Shown: positions 5,328 to 14,251, counted from the stretch's first letter. The stretch: DNA of 14,251 nucleotides from Candidatus Hermodarchaeota archaeon (GCA_016839365.1 JAEOUH010000077.1:1-14251); one strand, 5' to 3'. A program made the numbers and translations. Notes: generated by a model not told the origin, from the letters alone.

Positions 5328-7022
5328 GTGGAGGGAATATACTTGACTCTAACCAAAGCTGATAAAATCGTTGTAACGTGCGGCTTACCCTATGCAAACG
5401 GTACAGCTCATATCGGTCATCTGCGCACCTATATTCCCGGTGATGCCTACGTAAGATACCTGAAACGCTATGGCTATGATGTGGTATTCTTTTGTGGATC
5501 CGACGCGCATGGAGCACCCATTGAACTTGCAGCAGAGCAAGCTGGTGTCTCACCTCAAAAGTTAATTGAAAAATACCACGCACACTTTGAAAAAATCTTT
5601 AGAAAATTAAATATTGGCGTTGATCTGTACGGGAATACAGAGGCCCCCTACCATTACAAACGCGCTCAAACCATTATCCGTACCCTCGAGGAGAATGGAT
5701 ACGTTGAAGCGCGTGATGTAGCTTTGCCATATTGTAATACCTGTCAGACATTCCTCGCTGACCGCTTCCTCGTTGGCACTTGCCCTTATTGTGGAGCGAT
5801 AGCTCGTGGAGATGAATGTGACCAAGGGTGTCAACGCTACCTTGATGCTGACCAGTTGATCAACCCCCGCTGTGTCACCTGTGGATCACCAGCCGTCAAA
5901 CGGAACGCCCGACACCATTTCTTTAAGCTCTCAATGTTCACTGATTTTCTTACGAAATTTAATAAAAGATTGAAAGGTACCGCATTAGCTCGAAATTACG
6001 CTCTGGGATGGATTCGGCAGGGACTAAAGGATTGGGGCATCTCCCGTGATTTGAAATGGGGAATCCCCTATCCGGGCGATGAGGATTTGGTTCTCTACGT
6101 ATGGGCTGAAAACTATGCAGGCTACATCTCATTTACTGAGGAATGGGCCCGGCAAACTGGAGTGGATTGGGAAGACTATTGGATTCGAGATGGGAAAATC
6201 ATCAATTTCATCGGTGCAGATATCGTATACCACCATGCAGTCTTCTGGCCTGCAATTCTCAAAGGAGTGAACTACAATACGGCCTATGCAATCGTTGCTA
6301 GTGGCATGGTCAAGGTTGAAGGGCATGGCCTCTCCAAGAGTCGCGGCTTCGTAATCGATATCGAAGAAGATATCATCAAACAGGGAATCGATTTAGATGC
6401 TGTGCGATACTACATCCTTTCATACACAGGATATACGAAGGACCTGGATTTTATTTGGAAGGACTTTCAAATCAGAGTGAATAATGAACTTGTCGGCATT
6501 CTGGGTAACTATGCCTATCGTGTTCTCCTGTTCATTCACAAACACTTCAAAAAAATCCCTCAAGGAACCCTAACAGATGAGGTCACCAGCCAGATTCGTA
6601 ATACCGTTGAAGCAATCGACAAAACATTTCATAGATTTCGATTTAAAGAAGCTGCTGATGCTGCGATGCTCCTTGCGTCGTTTGGGAATACGCTCTTCCA
6701 ACAGAGTGAACCATGGAAAACGATCAAAGAAGAAAGAGACCGTGCTCAATTTGATCTATATCAGTGCCTCCAAGTATTGAAAGCCATTACGATTCTAATC
6801 GAACCTGTTATGCCAGCAATCTCAGAAAGGATTTGGCAACAACTTGGGCAGGATGGAAACATCCATGAAGTGAAGGTGGAAGAGTGTACAGAACCACTTG
6901 TTCCAGGCACAAAACTGCCAAATCCAGAAGCGCTATTCACGAAGATAGCCGACGAAACTGTTGAAGCATTAACCTCCAGATTGAACCAACGTATTGAATC
7001 TGCTAGGGCAAAAGCAAAGTAG
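5328..7022 (+). CDS. metG: Methionine--tRNA ligase (no C-terminal tRNA-binding domain)
   Basis: LPYANG..HIGH, GSDAHG, four CxxC-type zinc-knuckle pairs, WGISRD..WG, G.DI..HH..FWPA and KMSKS-like GLSKS. The true start may be TTG at 5343, after GGAGG at 5330-5334. Confidence 0.97.
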   Translation: MEGIYLTLTKADKIVVTCGLPYANGTAHIGHLRTYIPGDAYVRYLKRYGYDVVFFCGSDAHGAPIELAAEQAGVSPQKLIEKYHAHFEKIFRKLNIGVDLYGNTEAPYHYKRAQTIIRTLEENGYVEARDVALPYCNTCQTFLADRFLVGTCPYCGAIARGDECDQGCQRYLDADQLINPRCVTCGSPAVKRNARHHFFKLSMFTDFLTKFNKRLKGTALARNYALGWIRQGLKDWGISRDLKWGIPYPGDEDLVLYVWAENYAGYISFTEEWARQTGVDWEDYWIRDGKIINFIGADIVYHHAVFWPAILKGVNYNTAYAIVASGMVKVEGHGLSKSRGFVIDIEEDIIKQGIDLDAVRYYILSYTGYTKDLDFIWKDFQIRVNNELVGILGNYAYRVLLFIHKHFKKIPQGTLTDEVTSQIRNTVEAIDKTFHRFRFKEAADAAMLLASFGNTLFQQSEPWKTIKEERDRAQFDLYQCLQVLKAITILIEPVMPAISERIWQQLGQDGNIHEVKVEECTEPLVPGTKLPNPEALFTKIADETVEALTSRLNQRIESARAKAK

Positions 7023-7028
7023 CTCTAT

Positions 7029-7135
7029 TCAGAAGCAAAATGTTGCCCGTTCTACAATTGAATAATTTCTTAGCTAATGGTTCAAACAACCTCTTATTAT
7101 GCAACTCTAATCAAAACTTGAAATGGCACAATTTG
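7029..7135 (+). repeat. Repeat copy A (A/C type) containing dif-like core GGTTCAAACAA-CCTCTTA-TTATGCAACTC at 7079-7107
   Basis: Ungapped match to 10120-10226 (91/107 identical by manual count). The core is shared with 8279-8307 and 11259-11286. Confidence 0.9.
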
Positions 7136-7187
7136 TCGTGATGAATAGAAAAACACAGCACTCAAGAGGCTTTTAGCCGGCAAAGAA

Positions 7188-8123
7188 CTAACTCGTTTTG
7201 TAAAGGTCTGTGCTCAAGTATTTTAGCCCTGAATCGTTTAGCAATGTGACTACTGTAGCCTTTGGTCCTAATGTTTTCGCGATCCTAATGGCTGCTACAA
7301 CATTGGCACCTGATGAAGTGCCTGCGAAGAGTCCTTCCTCTCGTGCTAAGCGTTGAGCCATTACCTTGGCTTCCTGTGTGGAAACTTGTATTATCTCACC
7401 AATCAAACTGGAATTCCACAAAGGAGGTATAAACCCAATACCGATTCCATCGATACCATGAGCCCCTCTGCTTCCACCAGACAAAACAGGCGATTCTTTA
7501 GGCTCAACGGCTACTATTTTCACATCTGGATTATGCTTCTTCAAAACTATCGCGGTTCCAGTGAGAGATCCCGCCGTCCCAACGACTTGTACATAGGCAT
7601 TAACCTTTCCCTCTGTTTGCTCCCAAATTTCTTCACCGAGAGCAAAATACCCGGAGATCTGGTCTTGGTTATGTAGTTGATTTGTCCAGTAAGTCTCTGG
7701 GGTTTCACTAATTTTGCGCGCCTTTTCAATCATTGCGTCAATTAATTCCTTAGTTATCCCACGTCCATGGCTCGGGATAACTGTTACTTCTGCACCTAAA
7801 GCCTGCATATGATCCAGTTTATCGCGACTAAAGGCATCCGAAGAGATTATTCGAAGTCGATACCCTTTCGCTGCACAAATAAATGCCAGCGATGTACCAG
7901 TGCTTCCCCCTGTATATTCAACTACGGTTCCACCCGGTTTCAACCGACCATCTTGTTCGGCTTTATCAATCATTGCTTGAGCCATACGATCTTTCATGCT
8001 CCCAGTTGGGTTTTCCCACTCTAACTTCACAAGCACACGGGCATACCCCTGCGGAACCACTTGCTGCAACTCTACCAACGAAGTATTCCCAATTGCGGCT
8101 AGAATATTTGTTCCTATCTTCAC
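7188..8123 (-). CDS. cysK: PLP-dependent cysteine synthase family protein
   Basis: IGNT.LV.L, KLE..NPTGSMKDR (PLP Lys), GTAGSLTG, H.I.GIG and GTSSGAN. Start reassigned to GTG at 8123 (311 aa), because the extra 54 codons in the ORF track are the antisense of repeat B. Confidence 0.88.
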   Translation of the reverse strand: MKIGTNILAAIGNTSLVELQQVVPQGYARVLVKLEWENPTGSMKDRMAQAMIDKAEQDGRLKPGGTVVEYTGGSTGTSLAFICAAKGYRLRIISSDAFSRDKLDHMQALGAEVTVIPSHGRGITKELIDAMIEKARKISETPETYWTNQLHNQDQISGYFALGEEIWEQTEGKVNAYVQVVGTAGSLTGTAIVLKKHNPDVKIVAVEPKESPVLSGGSRGAHGIDGIGIGFIPPLWNSSLIGEIIQVSTQEAKVMAQRLAREEGLFAGTSSGANVVAAIRIAKTLGPKATVVTLLNDSGLKYLSTDLYKTS

Positions 8124-8129
8124 GCAGCC

Positions 8130-8250
8130 AACCAGCTTCCTCAAAAATAAGTTTCCTAAACCTAAATATCTTATTCCAGATAAAGCAGCTGAGAAACTTA
8201 GAATCGACCTTAGCCAACGCATTGAATCTGGGTGAGTAAGAACCAAGTAA
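8130..8250 (+). pseudogene. Degenerate copy of the metG 3' end (remnant B)
   Basis: Translates to KFPKPKYL---IPDKAAEKLRIDLSQRIESG*VRTK*, versus MetRS KLPNPEALFTKIADETVEALTSRLNQRIESARAKAK*. The terminal stop is at the same position; premature TGA at 8233-8235. Confidence 0.85.
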
Positions 8251-8307
8251 CGCCGTTCAACAAAATTTCTTAGCCTGTTGTTCAAACAACCTCTGAGTAT
8301 GCATTAA
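8178..8307 (+). repeat. Repeat copy B (B/D type) with dif-like core TGTTCAAACAA-CCTCTGA-GTATGCATTAA at 8279-8307
   Basis: 8178-8294 aligns ungapped to 11158-11274 (96/117 identical by manual count). Confidence 0.9.
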
Positions 8308-8332
8308 ATGAAGACATGAAAATCTTTGAATT

Positions 8333-8908
8333 TCAGAATTCTTTACCTTTCTGATAGACTTGTTTGAGGTAATTCGTTCGGGTTGCATCATCAACAGCAG
8401 CGACTGAATAAAGGAAGAGGAAGTCAACTTCTTTAATTCCAGATTCTGTGAGTGACATTCCCAAGATGTTCTTCATAGAACCCCCCAAACCGGTAGCCTG
8501 GTAATAGGTTTCGGGGTTTCCAGTAGTAAAGATGTAGAGACCTTTCTTTTGCGTGAGAAGACCGATCATTCCTGTCTGATCAGCTTTCCAAGCAAAGCCA
8601 AATGAGAACACACGTTGAACCCAGCCTTCTAAGATTGCTGGGATGAACCATCCGAGAGCAGGACTGATAAATACTAATGCTTCAGCGTTAGCCAGTCTTT
8701 CTTGTTGCTTTTGTACTTCTTTAGGCATTGGTTTTCCCGCAAATTGCCCAAAGTCTTCAAGTTGGATGCTGGGATTGAATTTTTCAGCGTATAAATCCAC
8801 AACATCGAAGGTATGACCACCATCCTTGAGGCCCTTTGTGAAGGATTCGAGAACAGCGTGATTAAACGACTTAGGATTTGGATGCGCATAAACAACTAAC
8901 ACGTTCAT
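8333..8908 (-). CDS. NAD(P)H-dependent flavodoxin-fold oxidoreductase (Flavodoxin_2, MdaB/KefF-like)
   Basis: MNVLVVYAHPNPKSFN, V.DLY...FNP, P...W..PA.L.GW..RVF..GFA and TTG motifs. Confidence 0.9.
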   Translation of the reverse strand: MNVLVVYAHPNPKSFNHAVLESFTKGLKDGGHTFDVVDLYAEKFNPSIQLEDFGQFAGKPMPKEVQKQQERLANAEALVFISPALGWFIPAILEGWVQRVFSFGFAWKADQTGMIGLLTQKKGLYIFTTGNPETYYQATGLGGSMKNILGMSLTESGIKEVDFLFLYSVAAVDDATRTNYLKQVYQKGKEF

Positions 8909-9010
8909 GAAAAAACCACCACAATTTTTCGGTTAATGGCATCTCAACCTAAATAACTGTAAGCTTTCCACAATGTAGAAAGACATGAACTTTTTATTAT
9001 TAAGTGGTGA

Positions 9011-9529
9011 TTGAAATTGCAGATTGACCCTCAATTATTACAAACCATTTCGATATTAGTAGCTATTAGTAGTATTATTGTTGCATTCATTATTGGTGTG
9101 CGCTCGATTCGTAACTTCACTGTCTCTCGTAAGGCATCAGTGTTCATCAGTTATCAGACTCAAGCTTACAACCATCAGTTTCTCAGAAATATGACAGAAA
9201 TTATCAACGAGTGGTCATGGAAGAATTTCGAAGATTTCTGGCAAAAATACGGACCACAAACTAACCCAGAATCGTATGCCAAGTTCATTTCTGTTAGTGG
9301 GTTTTATGAGGGAATGGCAAGACTTCTTAGAAAGAATATCATCGATATTGATTTGATGCCCGTAGTCATGTCTATCGGGATCATTATGTTTTGGGATAAA
9401 ATCAAACCTATGTCAGCACAGATGGGCAAATATTTAGGCATCACGGAAGGGATAGATTTAGCTCAATTTCTCTATGATAGGGTGAAAAGTCGACAACACG
9501 AAACAAAAAATCACACTGAATTTGTATAA
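9011..9529 (+). CDS. Hypothetical membrane-anchored protein (DUF4760-like), paralogue 1
   Basis: N-terminal TM helix and WSWK...FW.KYGP..NP motif shared with the next ORF. The start may be TTG at 9017, 6 nt after GGTGA. The family name is from memory. Confidence 0.75.
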   Translation: MKLQIDPQLLQTISILVAISSIIVAFIIGVRSIRNFTVSRKASVFISYQTQAYNHQFLRNMTEIINEWSWKNFEDFWQKYGPQTNPESYAKFISVSGFYEGMARLLRKNIIDIDLMPVVMSIGIIMFWDKIKPMSAQMGKYLGITEGIDLAQFLYDRVKSRQHETKNHTEFV

Positions 9530-9655
9530 CTCAGTATTTCCCATAAAAGATGATTCGGTATCCATGAACACAGATATGATGTATGTCGTAGCATGAGATT
9601 TTTTCAGTTAGAATGACATAGATTCTTGTCTATACATTTACGGTGCGTGAGTTCG

Positions 9656-10156
9656 ATGCAGTTGCCCATTACTCTCGATCAGATTGGTATATTTATCGCT
9701 GCAATCAGCGTTGTAGTCGGTGTAATCTTAGGACTGCAATCTGCGAAGGATTGGTCCAAGGACCGCAATGCGAGTCTTTTCCTCCAGTATCAGCTTCAAG
9801 CCTTCAACACTGAATTCATGGAGAATCTAATCGAAATTAACTCATTATGGTCATGGAAGGATAATATGGAGTTTTGGACAAAGTATGGACCCGAATCGAA
9901 CCCGAAGAAGTTTGCAAAATTTTCTGTAGTTGGCACGGTTTTTGATAGTATGGGGGTTTTGCTAAAGCGGAAATACATACCTGTGGACATGGTACCGGAA
10001 TTGATGATTATTGGGATAATTTCTTTTTGGGAGAAAGTTGCACCTATTTCCACTCAACTGAGTATAGACATGCAACGGCCTCATGCTTTTGAGAATATCG
10101 AGTATCTTGTTAATGAAGCTCGGAAGCGAGATGCAACCCGTTCTAGAATTAAATAA
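9656..10156 (+). CDS. Hypothetical membrane-anchored protein (DUF4760-like), paralogue 2
   Basis: Colinear similarity to 9011-9529 (WSWKDNMEFWTKYGPESNP, MG.LL....I..D..P, IGIISFWEK). ATG at 9656 preferred, with TATA-like TATACATTTA at 9631-9640. Confidence 0.78.
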   Translation: MQLPITLDQIGIFIAAISVVVGVILGLQSAKDWSKDRNASLFLQYQLQAFNTEFMENLIEINSLWSWKDNMEFWTKYGPESNPKKFAKFSVVGTVFDSMGVLLKRKYIPVDMVPELMIIGIISFWEKVAPISTQLSIDMQRPHAFENIEYLVNEARKRDATRSRIK

Positions 10157-10226
10157 TTTCTTAACAAATGGTTCAAACAACCCCTGATTATGCAACTCTT
10201 ATCAAAACAAGAAATGCCACAATTTG
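10120..10226 (+). repeat. Repeat copy C (A/C type) with dif-like core GGTTCAAACAA-CCCCTGA-TTATGCAACTC at 10170-10198
   Basis: Ungapped match to 7029-7135 at offset 3091. Confidence 0.9.
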
Positions 10227-10547
10227 GCTTCAATATGTAATGTTATGGAACCATTCCCGTTAGTGGTAGTGCCCACCACGGAATCGCATCTAAGATGAAG
10301 GAATGGTGGATTCTCGAACTTGCCGATCATCCTATTATGAATAGTGGATAACACAAACAAGAGCTATTTACACACACTATTCCTTTCCTTGAATCCATCT
10401 AACTCAACCCTCTTCATCTGTTCCATCACTTTTTTCGAATAAATTAACCTCTGTTTTTTTATGGCTCATTGCGCCTAAAGGATTTTATACGCTCTAAATC
10501 CTATCTTAACGGGTTTTGCATAACTTAATGGAATGGAGAAAAAGATT

Positions 10548-10994
10548 ATGGGATTATTTGGTCGATTTAAAGCCCCAAAAGCGACAATCTCAGTAATGTT
10601 GAATAAGGATACATACAGCCTCAAAGAGCCCCTAACAGGGACCGTTAATGTGTCATCATCTGAAGAATTTGACGCCGATGAAGTTCGTCTTGAAATCTGG
10701 GTCAACGAATGGACCAAAGCGACCGAGAAGCAGGGTACGAAAGAAAAACCGATTACAGTAACCGCTCAACAAAACAGCGTACTCCATCAAAGCAAGAATT
10801 CCATCGGAGGGCAAATGCAATTCACCGACGGTTTTAGCGACAGTATTGACTTCAGTATCCATTTACCATCAGGAGTTCCACCCACCTATCGAAGTCAAAA
10901 TGCCCGAAATACCTGGATGATGAAAGGCGTAATTGCGGTTAAAGGCCGACCCGATGTCACTAGCCACGACATGGAAGTCGTAATAACCTACTAG
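10548..10994 (+). CDS. Arrestin-N/Spo0M/Vps26-like beta-sandwich protein
   Basis: 'ISV.LNKDTY...E.LTG.V.V.S', 'FSIHLP..VPPTY' and 'W.MKG.I...GRPD' follow the arrestin-N fold pattern. Start is ATG 10548 (MGLFGRF) or 10533. Confidence 0.72.
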   Translation: MGLFGRFKAPKATISVMLNKDTYSLKEPLTGTVNVSSSEEFDADEVRLEIWVNEWTKATEKQGTKEKPITVTAQQNSVLHQSKNSIGGQMQFTDGFSDSIDFSIHLPSGVPPTYRSQNARNTWMMKGVIAVKGRPDVTSHDMEVVITY

Positions 10995-11019
10995 TGAACC
11001 CTCATGTTGTATCATTACA

Positions 11020-11230
11020 GGGCAATTACTGTGTAGGTGAAGGCAGCCATCGAAGTGAGCAGTTCACCTCTTCTAAAATAACTGAAAACTGATGAAATAA
11101 GGATCCCGTTCCCCCTAGTATTGAATTATCCAAGCCTACTGCATTTTTCCAGAGTCTAGATGATGCAGTTGAGGAAGTTGGAACGGGCCTTAACCAACGC
11201 ATTGAATCTGGGCGGGTAAGAGCCAAGTTA
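11020..11230 (+). pseudogene. Degenerate copy of the metG 3' end (remnant D)
   Basis: Translates to DPVPPSIELSKPTAFFQSL-DDAVEEVGTGLNQRIESGRVRAK, versus MetRS EPLVPGTKLPNPEALFTKIADETVEALTSRLNQRIESARAKAK. Weaker frameshifted DNA similarity upstream (GGCAA..ACT...AGG.TG.A..CA.CCAT.GAAGTGA). Confidence 0.87.
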
Positions 11231-11286
11231 CACCATTCAACAAAATTTCTGATGCTGTTGTTTAAATAACCTCTATTATGCTAACA
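11158..11286 (+). repeat. Repeat copy D (B/D type) with 28-bp dif-like core TGTTTAAATAA-CCTCTA-TTATGCTAACA at 11259-11286
   Basis: Matches copy B at offset 2980. The core is an 11-6-11 imperfect palindrome with 8/11 symmetric arm positions. Confidence 0.88.
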
Positions 11287-11463
11287 CCTAGGCTGTTGAA
11301 CTAGGCGAGTGTTGTGGTGGACGACCCGTGTTCAAATCGTGGGTTGTTTAGAATTAGTTAACACTGTTTATTAGAAATATCAGATTTTTAAGGTTCAAAG
11401 GAGAAGGGGGTCTTATTCATCCTTTGTAGAAGGATGGATGGGAAAGTCTAGGAGATTACGTAT

Positions 11464-12360
11464 TTGGTAATAAAACAGAGAAAGTTGAGCTTTCTTCTAG
11501 TTGCAATTGCAGTGTTCTGTGTGGTGTCGATGTTGTCGCCGTTCCCGGATAGGGTGCGGGCGATGACAGTGATTACGGATAATTTCAATGACATGGACTA
11601 TGCGGGGTGGGATACCTACGGATATATATTGAATTGGACGACATCCCCCCCTAAGACGTATCTTGCGGGTTCAGCGAATTTTTCAGCTGCGGATCAGACC
11701 TTGAAGGTCACGGGACCCCTGGGCAATTACACATATTCGTCCTGGAATAATGCATACATCGAGAGCTCAGTGAGCTTTGGTCAGTGGAGCTTCGATTTGT
11801 ATGTAGTCAATACAACACTCGGTATGGGGTATGTACGCCTTATGGCGGACCACTATTATCCAGCCGAATATTATTCTGCTATTCCCGGTCCGTACATGAA
11901 TAATAGTTACGAAATTTGGTGCTACACCCGTAATTTGACTTCGTCGATTGGTTCATTCGTTGACCGGCCGATGATTACCCTTGAAAGATGGTTAACAGGT
12001 TCTGGGGATATTCGTGCGTCATATTCTGTTGGAACACCTTCGGATACTTGGACGAATTGCTGGGTTCACTTCGATGTGATTCGGAATACTACGGGGCACA
12101 TCATGGTGTACATCAACAGCACCCTCCGCATAGCAATAGGAGACAATCTTAATCCCATACCTGGGTACTTCGTGTTTTCTGGACAGAGTGGTTGGGCCAT
12201 TGATAGCGTGGTCATCTCGGGAATTTCCGCCATCCCCACCATCCCCACCATCCCTACTGAACCACCACCGGACTTCACGCTACCCTTGATTGCCATCATT
12301 GCCATCGAGCTCATCGTCATCATCGTCCTCTCCATCTTATACTTCCGGCGACGATCATAA
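11464..12360 (+). CDS. Secreted, C-terminally membrane-anchored surface protein (possible ConA/LamG-like beta-sandwich)
   Basis: Basic plus hydrophobic signal peptide ending near VRA; aromatic, beta-rich body (W.HFDV.R...G.I.VYIN); several NxS/T sequons; (IPT)3 linker; TM helix and RRRS tail. Confidence 0.8.
   Translation: MVIKQRKLSFLLVAIAVFCVVSMLSPFPDRVRAMTVITDNFNDMDYAGWDTYGYILNWTTSPPKTYLAGSANFSAADQTLKVTGPLGNYTYSSWNNAYIESSVSFGQWSFDLYVVNTTLGMGYVRLMADHYYPAEYYSAIPGPYMNNSYEIWCYTRNLTSSIGSFVDRPMITLERWLTGSGDIRASYSVGTPSDTWTNCWVHFDVIRNTTGHIMVYINSTLRIAIGDNLNPIPGYFVFSGQSGWAIDSVVISGISAIPTIPTIPTEPPPDFTLPLIAIIAIELIVIIVLSILYFRRRS
12230..12256 (+). repeat. 9-bp tandem repeat (CCATCCCCA)x3 encoding an IPT linker
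   Basis: CCATCCCCA CCATCCCCA CCATCCCTA. Confidence 0.8.
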
Positions 12361-12361
12361 T

Positions 12362-12403
12362 CAGGTGCGTGTAGGGCACCTGCCCTACCCCTTTCCTTTT
12401 TTT
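12362..12403 (+). terminator. Hairpin plus oligo-T putative terminator
   Basis: GTAGGGCA/TGCCCTAC (12371-12388), with alternative stem CAGGTGC/GCACCTG, followed by CTTTCCTTTTTTT immediately after the stop codon. Confidence 0.55.
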
Positions 12404-12617
12404 CAGAAGGAACGTTATTTAGCGCTCGCATGAGCTATGTAATATCTCCGACACCATTGGACCAAGCTTATGTTGGGTTACCTTTGTCATCTTTGGGTCA
12501 TCAGGGATTGTGTTCTCGCTTGTACAGGGATATTCAGTCAATCTTCGGGTGCATAACTTTTTACTTCTTCAATTATTTCTACACTCATAGCAATTCACTT
12601 AGGTAGGTGGATTACGA

Positions 12618-12652
12618 GCATAAGGGGTGTGTGTGCTTGAACAACAACATCA
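12618..12652 (-). repeat. Possible inverted, degenerate copy (E) of the dif-like core
   Basis: Reverse complement TGATGTTGTTGTTCAAGCAC-ACACACCCC-TTATGC versus copy D TGATGCTGTTGTTTAAATAA-CCTCTA-TTATGC. The spacer is 9 bp. Confidence 0.4.
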
Positions 12653-12701
12653 TTTCTTATCCCCGTTTTGCACCCCTAGCTAGTGTAAAGTGGTGAATAC
12701 T

Positions 12702-14251
12702 ATGGTTGGCGTTGATCCTTCAATACCCCTATCTGATATAACGAAGCTTCCTGCAAAACTCCAGCGGAAGCTTGACGCCCATGGAATTAATGATCTCGCA
12801 GATCTTTTTCTGGCAGAGACCAAACTACAGGACGCCGTCACATTAGCGACCAACACGGATCTTACCATTCGTGAAGCTCTTGAAGCCCGACAGCTTGGTC
12901 GGCGATATTTAGAAACCATTTTAGCAGAGATCACCGCCAAGCGCAAGGTCGAATCGTTGGGATTATTGTGGAAGATTCATTGGCTGTTAGGAGCTGTACC
13001 TAATGGAAATCTCCGAAACGAGCTTATCGCGCTTGAGGCTTCAGCCATTGCCACGATTCTTGAGACTTTAGAAACCACCGAGGCGGTGACGATAGAACAA
13101 ATTCTCCAGGTACTGCTTCACCGTCTCCTCATTGTTCCGAAAGCGACAATGAAGGCGGAGTTGACACAACTTGTGGAGTTTGCCGAGAAGTTTCAGCGGA
13201 GCTCCTTGCTCGCCTATCAAACAACTAAAGCAAAGGATTCGATGATGGCATTAGCCGATGAGGATGATCCCACAAAGCAGGTTGTACAGATACGAAAACT
13301 CACAACTCATTGGAAGAACCTTCTTAAGACAATGCAAGACCGCAGCCAGGAACGAGGAACCGTAATTATATCAGCACTCCTGTCAACTGATGACCTAAGA
13401 GTACTAGATATCAGCGAACGGCATTTGCAAGAACGCCTCCAACAAACCATGTCAACAAAGAAACTTCGACAATCACAGCTAAAGCACATCACGACTGCAA
13501 TGAATGCCATGTTTGATCTCCGCGATGCCTACTCTACCGCCAAACTAGCCACGCGGGCGAGCCAGATATGGTTTGAACTGGCACAAGGCAAAACCAGCAA
13601 GGCACTTGGAGATGATTTATTACGTAGTCTACGATTTGCACGTACAGCGATTTTCAATTATCGTGCACTTGATGATTTGAACGGAGCGGTCAAGCAGCTT
13701 GATTATATTATCCACGTACTTGGTGAAATCCCATTCGAACCCGCTGAACCCCTTGAGGAAGCCGTTACAAGTGCCTTCCAAACGTTAATCCGAACTATAC
13801 CACTCCTGGACCGTCCTGCAGACCAAGAATTCATTCTTCGAATCTCAAAACGGCTAGGCAGCCTCATAACGAGGTTGATGCCCAAAATCGCAGCTCCTGA
13901 AGCCCAGTCTGCTTTGGCAAAACTCCAAATCGAATTCCAACAAACAGCACTAAAACAGCTGAAGCAACTTGGGGCAACACCTGAGACCAATCAACCACTC
14001 ACCCAGGAGCTCATAGAAGCTCAATTGCGCCTAATCGAAGTTACCTCAGAAGATGAAAGAGACGCCCTCCTACGTGCAGCCGCTGAATATGCAACCCAAC
14101 TAATACCTGAGACCCACCCAACGCCGAAAATCGACGAGAAAAATCTTGAAATTATTTCCCGCATTGTACAGCAACTAGCTCAGCGACCCAAGGAAACTTT
14201 GAGTGATTCAGCACAACACCTTATGGAGAAAAGTCACAAACTCAACGAACA
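12702..14251 (+). CDS. Large hypothetical protein with an N-terminal helix-hairpin-helix-like segment and all-alpha body; runs off the window
   Basis: ATG at 12702 after GGTGA (12692-12696). Manually read as open for 516 codons (MVGVDPSIPLSDITKLPAKLQRKLDAHGINDLADLF...). Absent from the ORF track because there is no stop in the window. Confidence 0.85.
   Translation, partial: MVGVDPSIPLSDITKLPAKLQRKLDAHGINDLADLFLAETKLQDAVTLATNTDLTIREALEARQLGRRYLETILAEITAKRKVESLGLLWKIHWLLGAVPNGNLRNELIALEASAIATILETLETTEAVTIEQILQVLLHRLLIVPKATMKAELTQLVEFAEKFQRSSLLAYQTTKAKDSMMALADEDDPTKQVVQIRKLTTHWKNLLKTMQDRSQERGTVIISALLSTDDLRVLDISERHLQERLQQTMSTKKLRQSQLKHITTAMNAMFDLRDAYSTAKLATRASQIWFELAQGKTSKALGDDLLRSLRFARTAIFNYRALDDLNGAVKQLDYIIHVLGEIPFEPAEPLEEAVTSAFQTLIRTIPLLDRPADQEFILRISKRLGSLITRLMPKIAAPEAQSALAKLQIEFQQTALKQLKQLGATPETNQPLTQELIEAQLRLIEVTSEDERDALLRAAAEYATQLIPETHPTPKIDEKNLEIISRIVQQLAQRPKETLSDSAQHLMEKSHKLNE

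Follow-up and report, generated by a model that had tools for sequence, protein, structure and literature searches.

A probable four-unit array of integrase-less gene cassettes behind metG in a Hermodarchaeota archaeon

The analysed stretch of DNA, 14,251 nt from Candidatus Hermodarchaeota archaeon (GCA_016839365.1 JAEOUH010000077.1:1-14251) and here called the window, probably holds a four-unit array of accessory-gene cassettes behind metG, with copies of one 41-nt site between the units. We favour, with moderate confidence, serial site-specific insertion of integrase-less cassettes as the origin of this array, with one frame duplicated and refilled. The evidence comes from the repeats of the window, from empty and filled sites in relatives, and from searches for a recombinase and for known types of recombination site.

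Repeats, anchors and cargo of the array

The features of the window are given below, with bit scores from a profile built on 19 copies of the site.

5328-7022, plus strand: metG (methionyl-tRNA synthetase), anchor gene; Pfam tRNA-synt_1g 5.7e-134
7029-7061, plus strand: arm y, copy A; about 32 nt common to 10120-10152 in alignments
7062-7102, plus strand: site A, 42.4 bits, E 1.5e-11; left 11 nt ATAATTTCTTA at 7062-7072, junction point after 7072, right part of variant 2 (GCTAATGG then TTCAAACAACC...)
7103-7135, plus strand: tail z, copy A, common to 10194-10226; homology to C ends at 7135
7137-8178, minus strand: cysK unit; CDS 7188-8123, flanked by 51 nt (3') and about 55 nt (5')
8149-8261, plus strand: relic B, a decayed copy of about 36 final metG codons ('w+x') with an in-frame stop
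8262-8302, plus strand: site B, variant 1 (GCCTGTTG then TTCAAACAACC...), 48.5 bits, E 2e-13; junction point after 8272
8333-10156, both strands: cargo of the middle unit, three genes by Pfam and NCBIfam
8333-8908, minus strand: Flavodoxin_2 NAD(P)H oxidoreductase (Pfam, NCBIfam)
9011-9529 and 9626-10156, plus strand: two DUF4760 genes (Pfam, NCBIfam)
10120-10226, plus strand: junction C; arm y 10120-10152, site C 10153-10193 (36.3 bits), tail z 10194-10226; junction point after 10163
10234-11025, plus strand: Arrestin_N/Spo0M-like module; CDS 10533-10994, 153 aa (Pfam)
11017-11241, plus strand: relic D, a decayed metG 3'-end copy, longer than relic B
11242-11281, plus strand: site D, decayed (TCTGA for TCTTA, 1-nt deletion), 30.1 bits, E 1.1e-7; junction point after 11252
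11282-12648, plus strand: last unit; a 298-aa protein with no family assigned at 11464-12360
12545-12648, plus strand: arm u, which recurs in G006 and G011:C2
12649-12659, plus strand: terminal half-site, ATCATTTCTTA; the next gene's native upstream region comes after it (to 12689)
12690-14249, plus strand: right anchor, a conserved 1,029-aa gene (5' half), neighbour of metG in G002 and the sister genus

The sequence-only reading had described two sibling modules with shared ends around different cargo, and both pairs of ends were borne out by a repeat search and blastn. Repeats A and C (7029-7135 and 10120-10226) are 85.0% identical over 107 nt (E 3.9e-29), and repeats B and D (8175-8302 and 11155-11281) are 81.3% identical over 128 nt (E 1.4e-28). 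The cargo was also as described, with cysK on the minus strand of one module and the arrestin-like gene on the plus strand of the other. A proposed extension of the shared left end (7141-7175 versus 10337-10370) was equalled by 52 of 500 shuffles and is therefore at chance level. The left and right ends had been taken for two distinct element termini, but they hold one and the same putative recombination site and differ in their left arms: a 41-nt core, overlooked in that reading, is common to all four repeats. In A and C, the site lies between an arm and a tail of 32 nt each; B and D consist of decayed copies of the metG 3' end and the site. The natural unit is the right part of one site through the left part of the next.

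Site B is the best copy, and site A is identical to the second site of G001 at 45 of 47 nt. The left 11 nt of the site, ATAATTTCTTA, occur a fifth time at 12649-12659, just before the next conserved gene. The site is restricted to the genus, with one to four copies per genome.

Segment x (6984-7031), the last 39 nt of metG and 9 nt downstream, is the source from which the relics of B and D were copied; the repeat search returned this genuine metG 3' end as the third copy of a 48-nt piece of both. In tblastn, the MetRS C-terminus matched relic B at 8149-8247 (42% identity, E 0.008) and relic D at 11102-11227 (44% over 43 aa, E 2.3e-7). Terminal metG relics were also present in G005, G007 and G012; relic B is 89.8% identical in nucleotides to that of G007, and relic D 76.5% identical over 251 nt to that of G012. 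Arms y, v and u showed no detectable relationship to the metG end, y giving no significant similarity. At junction C, arm y encodes the last 11 codons of the second DUF4760 gene, and this protein tail is missing from DUF4760 homologues elsewhere.

The cysK product is a PLP enzyme of the CysK/CysM family (Pfam PALP 3.9e-68; NCBIfam cysKM 5.7e-90). An extension of its ORF to 8285 was rejected as an artefact, an antisense reading through relic B. Homologues of the middle-unit cargo were found at other loci of G001, G006, G008, G011 and G014. The last unit (11253-12648) is missing from G007, the gap being bounded exactly by two copies of ATTTCT(G/T)A. When the translation was read by eye, the 298-aa protein showed hydrophobic segments near both ends. 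The 1,029-aa protein is an alpha-solenoid in its structure model, and no recombinase fold was found in that model.

Empty sites, filled sites and other loci in relatives

All genomes compared were MAGs, and each of 31 relatives kept the metG synteny. Two species of the genus, G002 and G003, as well as the sister genus have metG directly next to the downstream gene. The spacer between metG and the 1,029-aa gene measures 62 nt in unoccupied relatives and 86 nt in the sister genus. The empty sites of G002 and G003 read as the metG stop, 20 nt, ATAATTTCTTA and the native region upstream of the next gene. Throughout the genus, every genome has the left 11-12 nt of the site ahead of the downstream gene, with the same layout of terminal half-site and native upstream region. 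Lying 42 nt upstream of the ATG of that gene, the left 11 nt may be conserved as part of a promoter.

At the same point, 0.3 to 7.1 kb of varied cargo, never with an integrase, was found in ten other genomes or contigs; filled sites were seen in G001, G005, G006, G007, G009, G010, G011, G012, G014 and metagenome contigs. The suggestion of conserved ends with an exchangeable middle is supported: the same site bounds varied cargo in G001, G005, G007, G010, G012, G014 and metagenome contigs, and the refuting outcome named in the sequence-only reading thus did not occur. Contigs G003:C105, G005:C59, L082 and L083 end at repeats, and the array orders are therefore partly incomplete.

The left arms at the junctions comprise the resident metG end, the metG relic, y, v, u and others, and the right arms comprise three site variants, the native upstream region and, at G011:C2, the end of a convergent gene. 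Left and right arms occur in many combinations. Every junction lies right after ...CTTA, and the cassette is therefore the right half-site, cargo, arm and left half-site. The left 11-12 nt of the site (A[T/A]AATTTCTTA) would be part of the target, and the right 29-30 nt (GCCTGTTG or GCTAATGG, then TTCAAACAACCTCTCATTATGC) would be brought by the inserted DNA. The commonest arm is a copy of the metG 3' end, as in B and D, carried even into species with a different metG end. In G005, the cassette arm has the sequence type of other species and is about two-thirds identical to the genome's own metG end (an estimate by eye), with a longest identical block of 11 nt. Furthermore, metG-like arms were carried with cassettes to loci unrelated to metG (L072 and L071).

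Joining after ...CTTA was seen at two other chromosomal loci. At G012:C28, an insert of about 375 nt has the right half-site at its start and TAAACACTTA on both flanks, and a single copy of TAAACACTTA without insert was found at G000:C48. At G011:C2, a 4-kb island occupies the place of 34 nt at G000:C46.

Homologous recombination alone would make the metG spacer an ordinary hotspot of gene flux, entered by Campbell-style integration via a metG-like arm of about 90-230 nt. The arms are long enough for this, and a direct repeat, perfect over at least 93 nt, flanks a 6.3-kb segment of metagenome contig L083. However, the sites involved in gaining or losing the 11253-12648 unit, the G012:C28 insert and the G011:C2 insert share only 8-11 nt, the unrelated arms y, v and u end at the identical nucleotide, and the resident metG end and cassette arm of G005 have at most 11 identical nucleotides in a row. 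We consider this explanation of the hotspot unlikely. In this reading, arrays would be resized by unequal crossover between repeats, and the 41-nt core would be a passenger regulatory sequence. In its favour, the siblings keep their cognate arms, and their divergence is equal at the two ends (15% and 19%), the pattern left by a single segmental duplication. Against it, the right half-site is not consistently oriented with respect to the cargo genes, so that a role as promoter or terminator does not explain its conservation.

Origin of the sibling modules and candidate recombinases

Within the window, the arms keep their cognate right halves: arm y with variant 2 and tail z twice, and the metG relic with variant 1 twice. 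A segmental duplication by unequal homologous crossover therefore suffices for the siblings. The two-site frame (y-site-z ... metG relic-site) may be present twice through this internal duplication or through two arrivals of one cassette family. One copy would retain the vertically inherited arrestin-like gene, and the interior of the other would have been replaced by the cysK unit. Judged by nucleotide identity, the arrestin-like module is inherited vertically: it is 92.7% identical over 792 nt to that of the sister species G007, with flanks at 90.2% and 89.2%. By the same measure, the 1,042-nt cysK unit is acquired horizontally. Its gene is 89.5-92.8% identical in nucleotides to the cysK genes that G007, G012 and G013 carry at unrelated loci, against a background of 70-75%, and its boundaries are sharp, exactly between tail z and the metG relic. 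A 4-nt microhomology, TCCA, at its right junction points to illegitimate rather than site-specific joining for the cysK step. The earlier proposal of a duplicated frame later filled with genes fits the window, with a horizontal cysK and a vertical arrestin-like middle.

Among ORFs from 70-90 aa up, the islands showed no domain of a tyrosine recombinase, a serine recombinase or a Y1 transposase, and neither a tyrosine recombinase nor an adjacent intI was found in the window or any island. Scans of up to seven genomes gave only XerA and a sporadic second tyrosine recombinase (468 aa, Xer-like), and no copy of the 41-nt site adjoined either of them. XerA was present in one copy in each of five genomes scanned (for example, G000:C89:14993-15934; NF040815, 265.6 bits, cut-off 220). 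No tRNA gene or fragment was detected at the junctions by ARAGORN, nor in the junction regions by Rfam at E up to 10. Under serial site-specific insertion, conservative recombination between sites would be performed by a putative recombinase acting in trans, supplied by a mobile element not captured in the MAGs or by host XerA. Cassettes would then be gained, lost and swapped serially, as in the tandem accretion of integrase-less elements.

A Xer-dependent system would make the site dif-like and the cassettes IMEX-like or 'dif module'-like units moved by host XerA. IMEX typically form tandem arrays at one chromosomal point. The present cassettes resemble IMEX and plasmid dif modules in having no integrase, a tandem arrangement at a single chromosomal point, short bounding sites and a host XerA. 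Unlike in those systems, the sites are direct repeats rather than alternately inverted, and the dif geometry failed. Archaeal dif measures 28 nt, with 11-nt arms that have few or no mismatches and a 6-nt spacer (PMC2958812, PMC8371274). No convincing dyad was found in the 41-nt site: its best 11-6-11 arrangement is 8/11 complementary, in A and C only, and the left arm of this arrangement is not conserved among site copies. The same quality occurs 18 times in the window by chance, with none at 9 or more, and canonical dif was rejected. In addition, the insertion point is used at no fewer than three loci, as opposed to single-copy dif. Movement by XerA at a dif-like site thus formulated seems to us quite unlikely. 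On reading by eye, the empty sites of G002 and G003 showed no such dyad.

Non-autonomous transposon-like elements would prefer ATAAnnnCTTA as target and duplicate 8-11 nt on insertion, and repeated hits into the duplicated target would build the array. Direct copies of 8-11 nt do flank every unit; a site-specific system with a shared overlap region would produce them just as well. The 10-11-nt repeat on both sides of the G012:C28 insert is the local target TAAACACTTA, unlike the metG target, and would also fit a target-site duplication. Arm u ends in an inverted 13-mer (12637-12649) resembling the left end, which was matched in none of 500 shuffles; as a terminal inverted repeat, however, this match exists at only 1 of 24 right ends, and the profile search (nhmmer) gave E 4.3. 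DDE transposase domains were not seen in the islands, nor was a Y1 transposase in any of five genomes, and the copy number is just one to four per genome. Moreover, the metG-like arms at L072 and L071 would not be produced by target duplication. We regard transposition of this kind as improbable.

Relation to known systems and significance

In Streptococcus and other bacteria, integrase-less elements called CIMEs accrete in tandem with ICEs and IMEs at the 3' ends of housekeeping or tRNA genes (PMC5704250). As in CIMEs, the 3' end of a conserved gene is targeted here, relatives have empty sites, and several elements with att-type sites and no integration genes stand in tandem. The copies of the gene end at the junctions, the single fixed crossover segment and the lack of integration and transfer genes match as well. 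However, the host is an Asgard archaeon, the units are just 1-3 kb with one to three genes, and the genomes searched yielded neither an integrase nor an autonomous partner element. The crossover also lies about 20 nt past the stop codon, in the spacer, and there are a conserved element-side half-site of 29-30 nt and at least two secondary chromosomal targets.

Tycheposon-type island arrays of marine cyanobacteria occupy a hotspot downstream of a conserved gene and show partial-gene repeats, cargo turnover and integrase-less satellites; these elements are much larger and have identifiable tyrosine recombinases in the same genomes. The present array shares the hotspot behind a conserved gene, the partial-gene repeats, the cargo turnover and the lack of an integrase, albeit with far smaller units. 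Integrons hold small exchangeable gene cassettes at a fixed chromosomal point, each with its own recombination site; intI lies adjacent, and attC is an imperfect ssDNA hairpin. An array of small exchangeable cassettes at a fixed point, each with its own site, is likewise seen here. Unlike in integrons, no intI lies by the array, the site is conserved in sequence and not in folded structure, the cargo is in both orientations and sometimes multi-gene, and the arms are copies of the target-gene end. ssDNA folding of the four sites on both strands was no better than that of shuffled sequences (z -0.5 to +0.4), and canonical attC was rejected. Integrons have also been reported in Archaea (PMC9668308).

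Tentatively, the genus could possess an integrase-less, integron-like platform for collecting genes, on which a putative recombinase from outside the array (host XerA or another) acts at the genus-specific 41-nt site, right after ...CTTA. Single genes with about 100-230 nt of arm plus site would hop between species and among at least three chromosomal targets. We hold this to be possible, though less than probable.

At one defined chromosomal point, ordinary metabolic and membrane genes are gained, lost and exchanged between species, among them genes for cysteine synthase, flavodoxin-like reductases, phosphate and Na+/H+ transporters and an arrestin-like protein. The junctions are precise to the nucleotide, and no integrase was found at the locus. 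Should the locus merely reflect the decay of old integrated elements together with homologous recombination, the present account is an unusually detailed description of an ordinary hotspot. If the exchange is driven by a host or unbinned recombinase, the 41-nt site and the known empty sites would form a compact and experimentally tractable system. Such a system would serve the study of gene flow in this lineage and possibly provide a tool for site-specific integration in Asgard genetics.

Repeat ends and the 41-nt site

The window is an entire contig of a MAG of 2.2 Mb (84% complete). Using a repeat search and blastn, we recovered both repeat pairs that the sequence-only reading had placed at the ends of its two sibling modules: A matched C at 85% over 107 nt (E 3.9e-29), and B matched D at 81% over 128 nt (E 1.4e-28). 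The cargo was also as described, with a CysK/CysM-family enzyme on the minus strand of one module and an Arrestin_N/Spo0M-like gene (153 aa) on the plus strand of the other. The weak match at 7141-7175 proposed to extend the shared left end was equalled by 52 of 500 shuffles, i.e., at chance level.

Repeat ends in the window (forward-strand coordinates)
7029-7135: end A; 32-nt arm y, site (7062-7102), 32-nt tail z
8175-8302: end B; decayed metG 3' end (relic B), site (8262-8302)
10120-10226: end C; 32-nt arm y, site (10153-10193), 32-nt tail z
11155-11281: end D; decayed metG 3' end (relic D), site (11242-11281)

Alignment of the four ends showed one core common to all of them. The consensus of 19 copies from the genus is a 41-nt site, ATAATTTCTTA followed by GCCTGTTGTTCAAACAACCTCTCATTATGC, and its profile scored 30-48 bits on the window copies. 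We refer to the left 11-12 nt, which end in ...CTTA, as the left half-site and to the other 29-30 nt as the right half-site. The in-frame translation of relic D matched the MetRS C-terminus (44% over 43 residues, E 2.3e-7), and that of relic B, which contains a stop, matched it at 42% over 36 residues (E 0.008). Arm y lies directly behind the real metG end in A and encodes the final 11 codons of a second DUF4760 gene in C. A reading of y as a native DUF4760 3' end was rejected, because the y-encoded tail is missing from DUF4760 homologues elsewhere. By eye, y and two further left arms, v and u, had looked like decayed ends of metG, but this was likewise rejected, the similarity not being significant. 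General terminal inverted repeats were discarded as well, with one match among 24 arms and no support from a profile search. An inverted 13-mer, TGCTTGAACAACA, at 12637-12649 resembles the right half-site and lies 13 nt before the terminal junction, the sole case among the 24 arms.

The junction point behind metG

In the sister genus, 86 nt separate metG from a conserved gene of 1,029 aa (from 12690 in the window). Within the genus, two genomes are unoccupied (G002, with the empty site at L116:660-730, and G003), and there the metG stop is followed by 20 nt, ATAATTTCTTA, 42 nt and the ATG. The remaining genomes of the genus carry an insertion at exactly that point. All genomes are MAGs and several contigs break at repeats, so that the order of units is incomplete in G005, G014 and G001. 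No recombinase domain was found in any island of the genus examined.

Fillings between metG and the 1,029-aa gene (G000, genome of the window; other numbers, related genomes of the genus)
Genome; filling; content
G011, G006; 0.3-0.4 kb; non-coding remnants
G010; 1.2 kb; 150-aa ORF without Pfam match
G007; 1.7 kb; flavodoxin, arrestin-like gene
G009; 2.6 kb; PHO4, acyltransferase
G001; contig incomplete; PHO4 flanked by two sites
G005-like contig; 6.3 kb; Na+/H+ exchanger, HAD, DUF1673-like, ABC-2-like
G012; 7.1 kb; peptidase-like gene and four genes without Pfam family above the cut-off
G014; contig incomplete; old-yellow-enzyme, beta-lactamase fold
G000 (window); 5.7 kb; cysK unit, arrestin-like module and other units

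The metG matches in G006 (contig C14, 660-2352) are split between two neighbouring frames (residues 3-301 and 299-563), which an assembly error or a frameshift could explain.

Throughout the genus, the upstream region of the 1,029-aa gene opens with the left half-site and continues with native sequence. The site is thus composite, its left part being the target and its right 29-30 nt arriving with the insert. The left 11 nt may also be retained because they lie at the expected promoter position of the downstream gene. A tandem spacer duplication, with the right half-site as a copy of the gene's native upstream region, was rejected since the similarity was no better than that of shuffles.

We tabulated all junctions. 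The left arms were the resident metG end, the metG relic, y, v (in G001, G009 and G011), u (in the window, G006 and contig C2 of G011) and several unique sequences; the right arms were three variants of the right half-site, the native upstream region and, at G011:C2, the 3' end of a convergent gene. The join lay after ...CTTA without exception. No relationship of y, v or u to the metG end was detectable, so different sequences were joined at the same nucleotide. This pattern fits serial site-specific recombination, by which integrase-less elements would accrete in tandem at the metG point. Tandem accretion of integrase-less CIMEs has been described in bacteria (PMC5704250).

Homologous recombination through the arms remains as an alternative and would be enough for the duplication within the window. 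Four comparisons argue against recombination through long homology. The last unit of the window (11253-12648) is missing from the otherwise 89-90% identical G007, and its two junctions have only ATTTCT(G/T)A in common. At a second target, contig C28 of G012 carries an insert of ~375 nt that has no cargo, opens with the right half-site and lies between copies of TAAACACTTA (L077:6900-7290), whereas its empty counterpart in the window's own genome (G000:C48, 8373-8387) has a single TAAACACTTA and no insert. A 4-kb island at G011:C2 stands against 34 nt at G000:C46. Finally, the cassette arm in G005 is a metG end of the type seen in other species; compared with the metG end resident in G005, it is about two-thirds identical by eye, and the longest block of identity spans 11 nt. 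A target-duplicating, transposon-like mechanism also remains beside site-specific recombination.

The left repeat of contig L083 was considered as a resident metG end and rejected; the own metG end of the G005 MAG (C59) differs, and both L083 copies are therefore cassette arms. Fragments of metG-like arm accompany the site at two loci unrelated to metG (G014:C12 and G011:C2), which indicates that the arm belongs to the cassette. In this respect the arm resembles an attP mimicking its primary target. At a G014 locus unrelated to metG (L072:9035-9097, minus strand), a "cassette" of ~50 nt consists of the right half-site, a 20-nt metG-end-like fragment and ATTTCTGA.

A small gene for a membrane protein (132-157 aa, weak DUF1673 match) is separated from the site by a ~230-nt sequence that is conserved among paralogous copies in G005, G008, G011 and G012. 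This sequence may be a regulatory RNA or a long 5' leader.

Copies of the ~230-nt sequence
L038:7250-7500 and 13400-13655 (minus strand)
L071:9100-9340
L076:1390-1600
L078:30-300
L083:9700-9980

The cysK unit and the arrestin-like module

The window and G007 are collinear at 90% up to 7032, and identity is 92.7% in the arrestin-like module, 87% in relic D and 89% in the downstream gene. The collinearity of the module at 92.7% indicates that it is old and vertical. The cysK unit (7137-8178) is discrete. Three loci in G007, G012 and G013, all unrelated to one another, hold cysK units that match it at 89.5-92.8% identity, as opposed to a background of 70-75% between the window and G012 or G013, indicating that it moved recently between species. 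The unit (~1.05 kb, with ~50 nt of flank on each side) lies in four genomic contexts in four species (the window; L094:5674-6714; L095:5377-6421; L096:3225-4234), and its borders in the other contexts showed neither a repeat nor a site. Its boundaries in the window are sharp, the left directly after z and the right at the first relic base with a 4-nt microhomology (TCCA). Judged from the sequence, the junction looks like illegitimate joining and not like site-specific recombination.

The longest cysK ORF (7188-8285) begins at a TTG inside site B, and its 54-codon N-terminal extension is the antisense of relic B. Because the Pfam domain starts only at residue 62, automatic annotation likely over-extends the gene, whose real start is probably the GTG at 8123.

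Inside the window, arms keep their cognate partners (y with site variant 2 and z, the relic with variant 1), and both ends have diverged about equally. The simplest history is therefore a two-site frame that was duplicated, either through unequal crossover or because one cassette family arrived twice, with one interior later replaced by cysK. Derived changes link relics B and D to the G007 relic rather than to resident metG ends, so the duplication is about as old as the split between the species of the window and G007.

Distribution, recombinase candidates and related systems

The site is limited to this genus. It had no match in viral contigs, three records among one genome per prokaryote species (all from this genus) and six in metagenome contigs, each in a chromosomal context; it was missing from all four genomes of the sister genus. 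No autonomous element bearing it was found in these three collections. Copy number is 1-4 per genome. A dispersed MITE was rejected, as the core does not occur elsewhere in G000 and has few copies in the genus.

Tyrosine recombinases were sought in seven genomes of the genus, with five genomes in each search, and serine recombinases and Y1 transposases in five genomes each. Each genome had one XerA (G000:C89:14993-15934 in the genome of the window), with a sporadic second tyrosine recombinase; no serine recombinase or Y1 transposase was found in the five genomes scanned for each. The second enzyme is a divergent Xer-like protein (468 aa) that is extended far at its C-terminus and is encoded beside transporter genes (G000:C42:28943-30349 = L114:4944-6350, minus strand). 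Only part of the genus has this enzyme, and its gene has no copy of the site in the vicinity.

The 1,029-aa gene, considered as a recombinase by analogy with integron layout, adjoins metG in two genera (window 12690-14249; full length L037:8406-11492). It was rejected, having no Pfam, NCBIfam or PDB sequence match, and its AlphaFold model (pLDDT 70) predicts a long TPR-like alpha-solenoid (residues ~90-855) followed by a low-confidence C-terminal beta domain. Foldseek matched the model to generic eukaryotic scaffold proteins (Ctr9, Ski3, separase) with low TM-scores.

Other site types were also rejected. For a canonical dif, the best 11-6-11 arrangement was complementary at 8/11 positions, with 18 equally good sites in the window, and none of 38 sites genome-wide with at least 10/11 complementary positions was related to the core. 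The site does not fold like attC. A T-arm-like stretch behind site D had no ARAGORN or Rfam support as a tRNA or tRNA-fragment target.

Accretion of ICEs, IMEs and CIMEs at gene 3' ends is the closest known process to the metG array. Integrons, IMEX elements and dif modules are alike in outcome, but the array does not pass tests that define them. Its new features are the complete lack of a partner integrase in all genomes searched, the host lineage, cassettes of very small size, a conserved half-site on the element side and the use of secondary targets.
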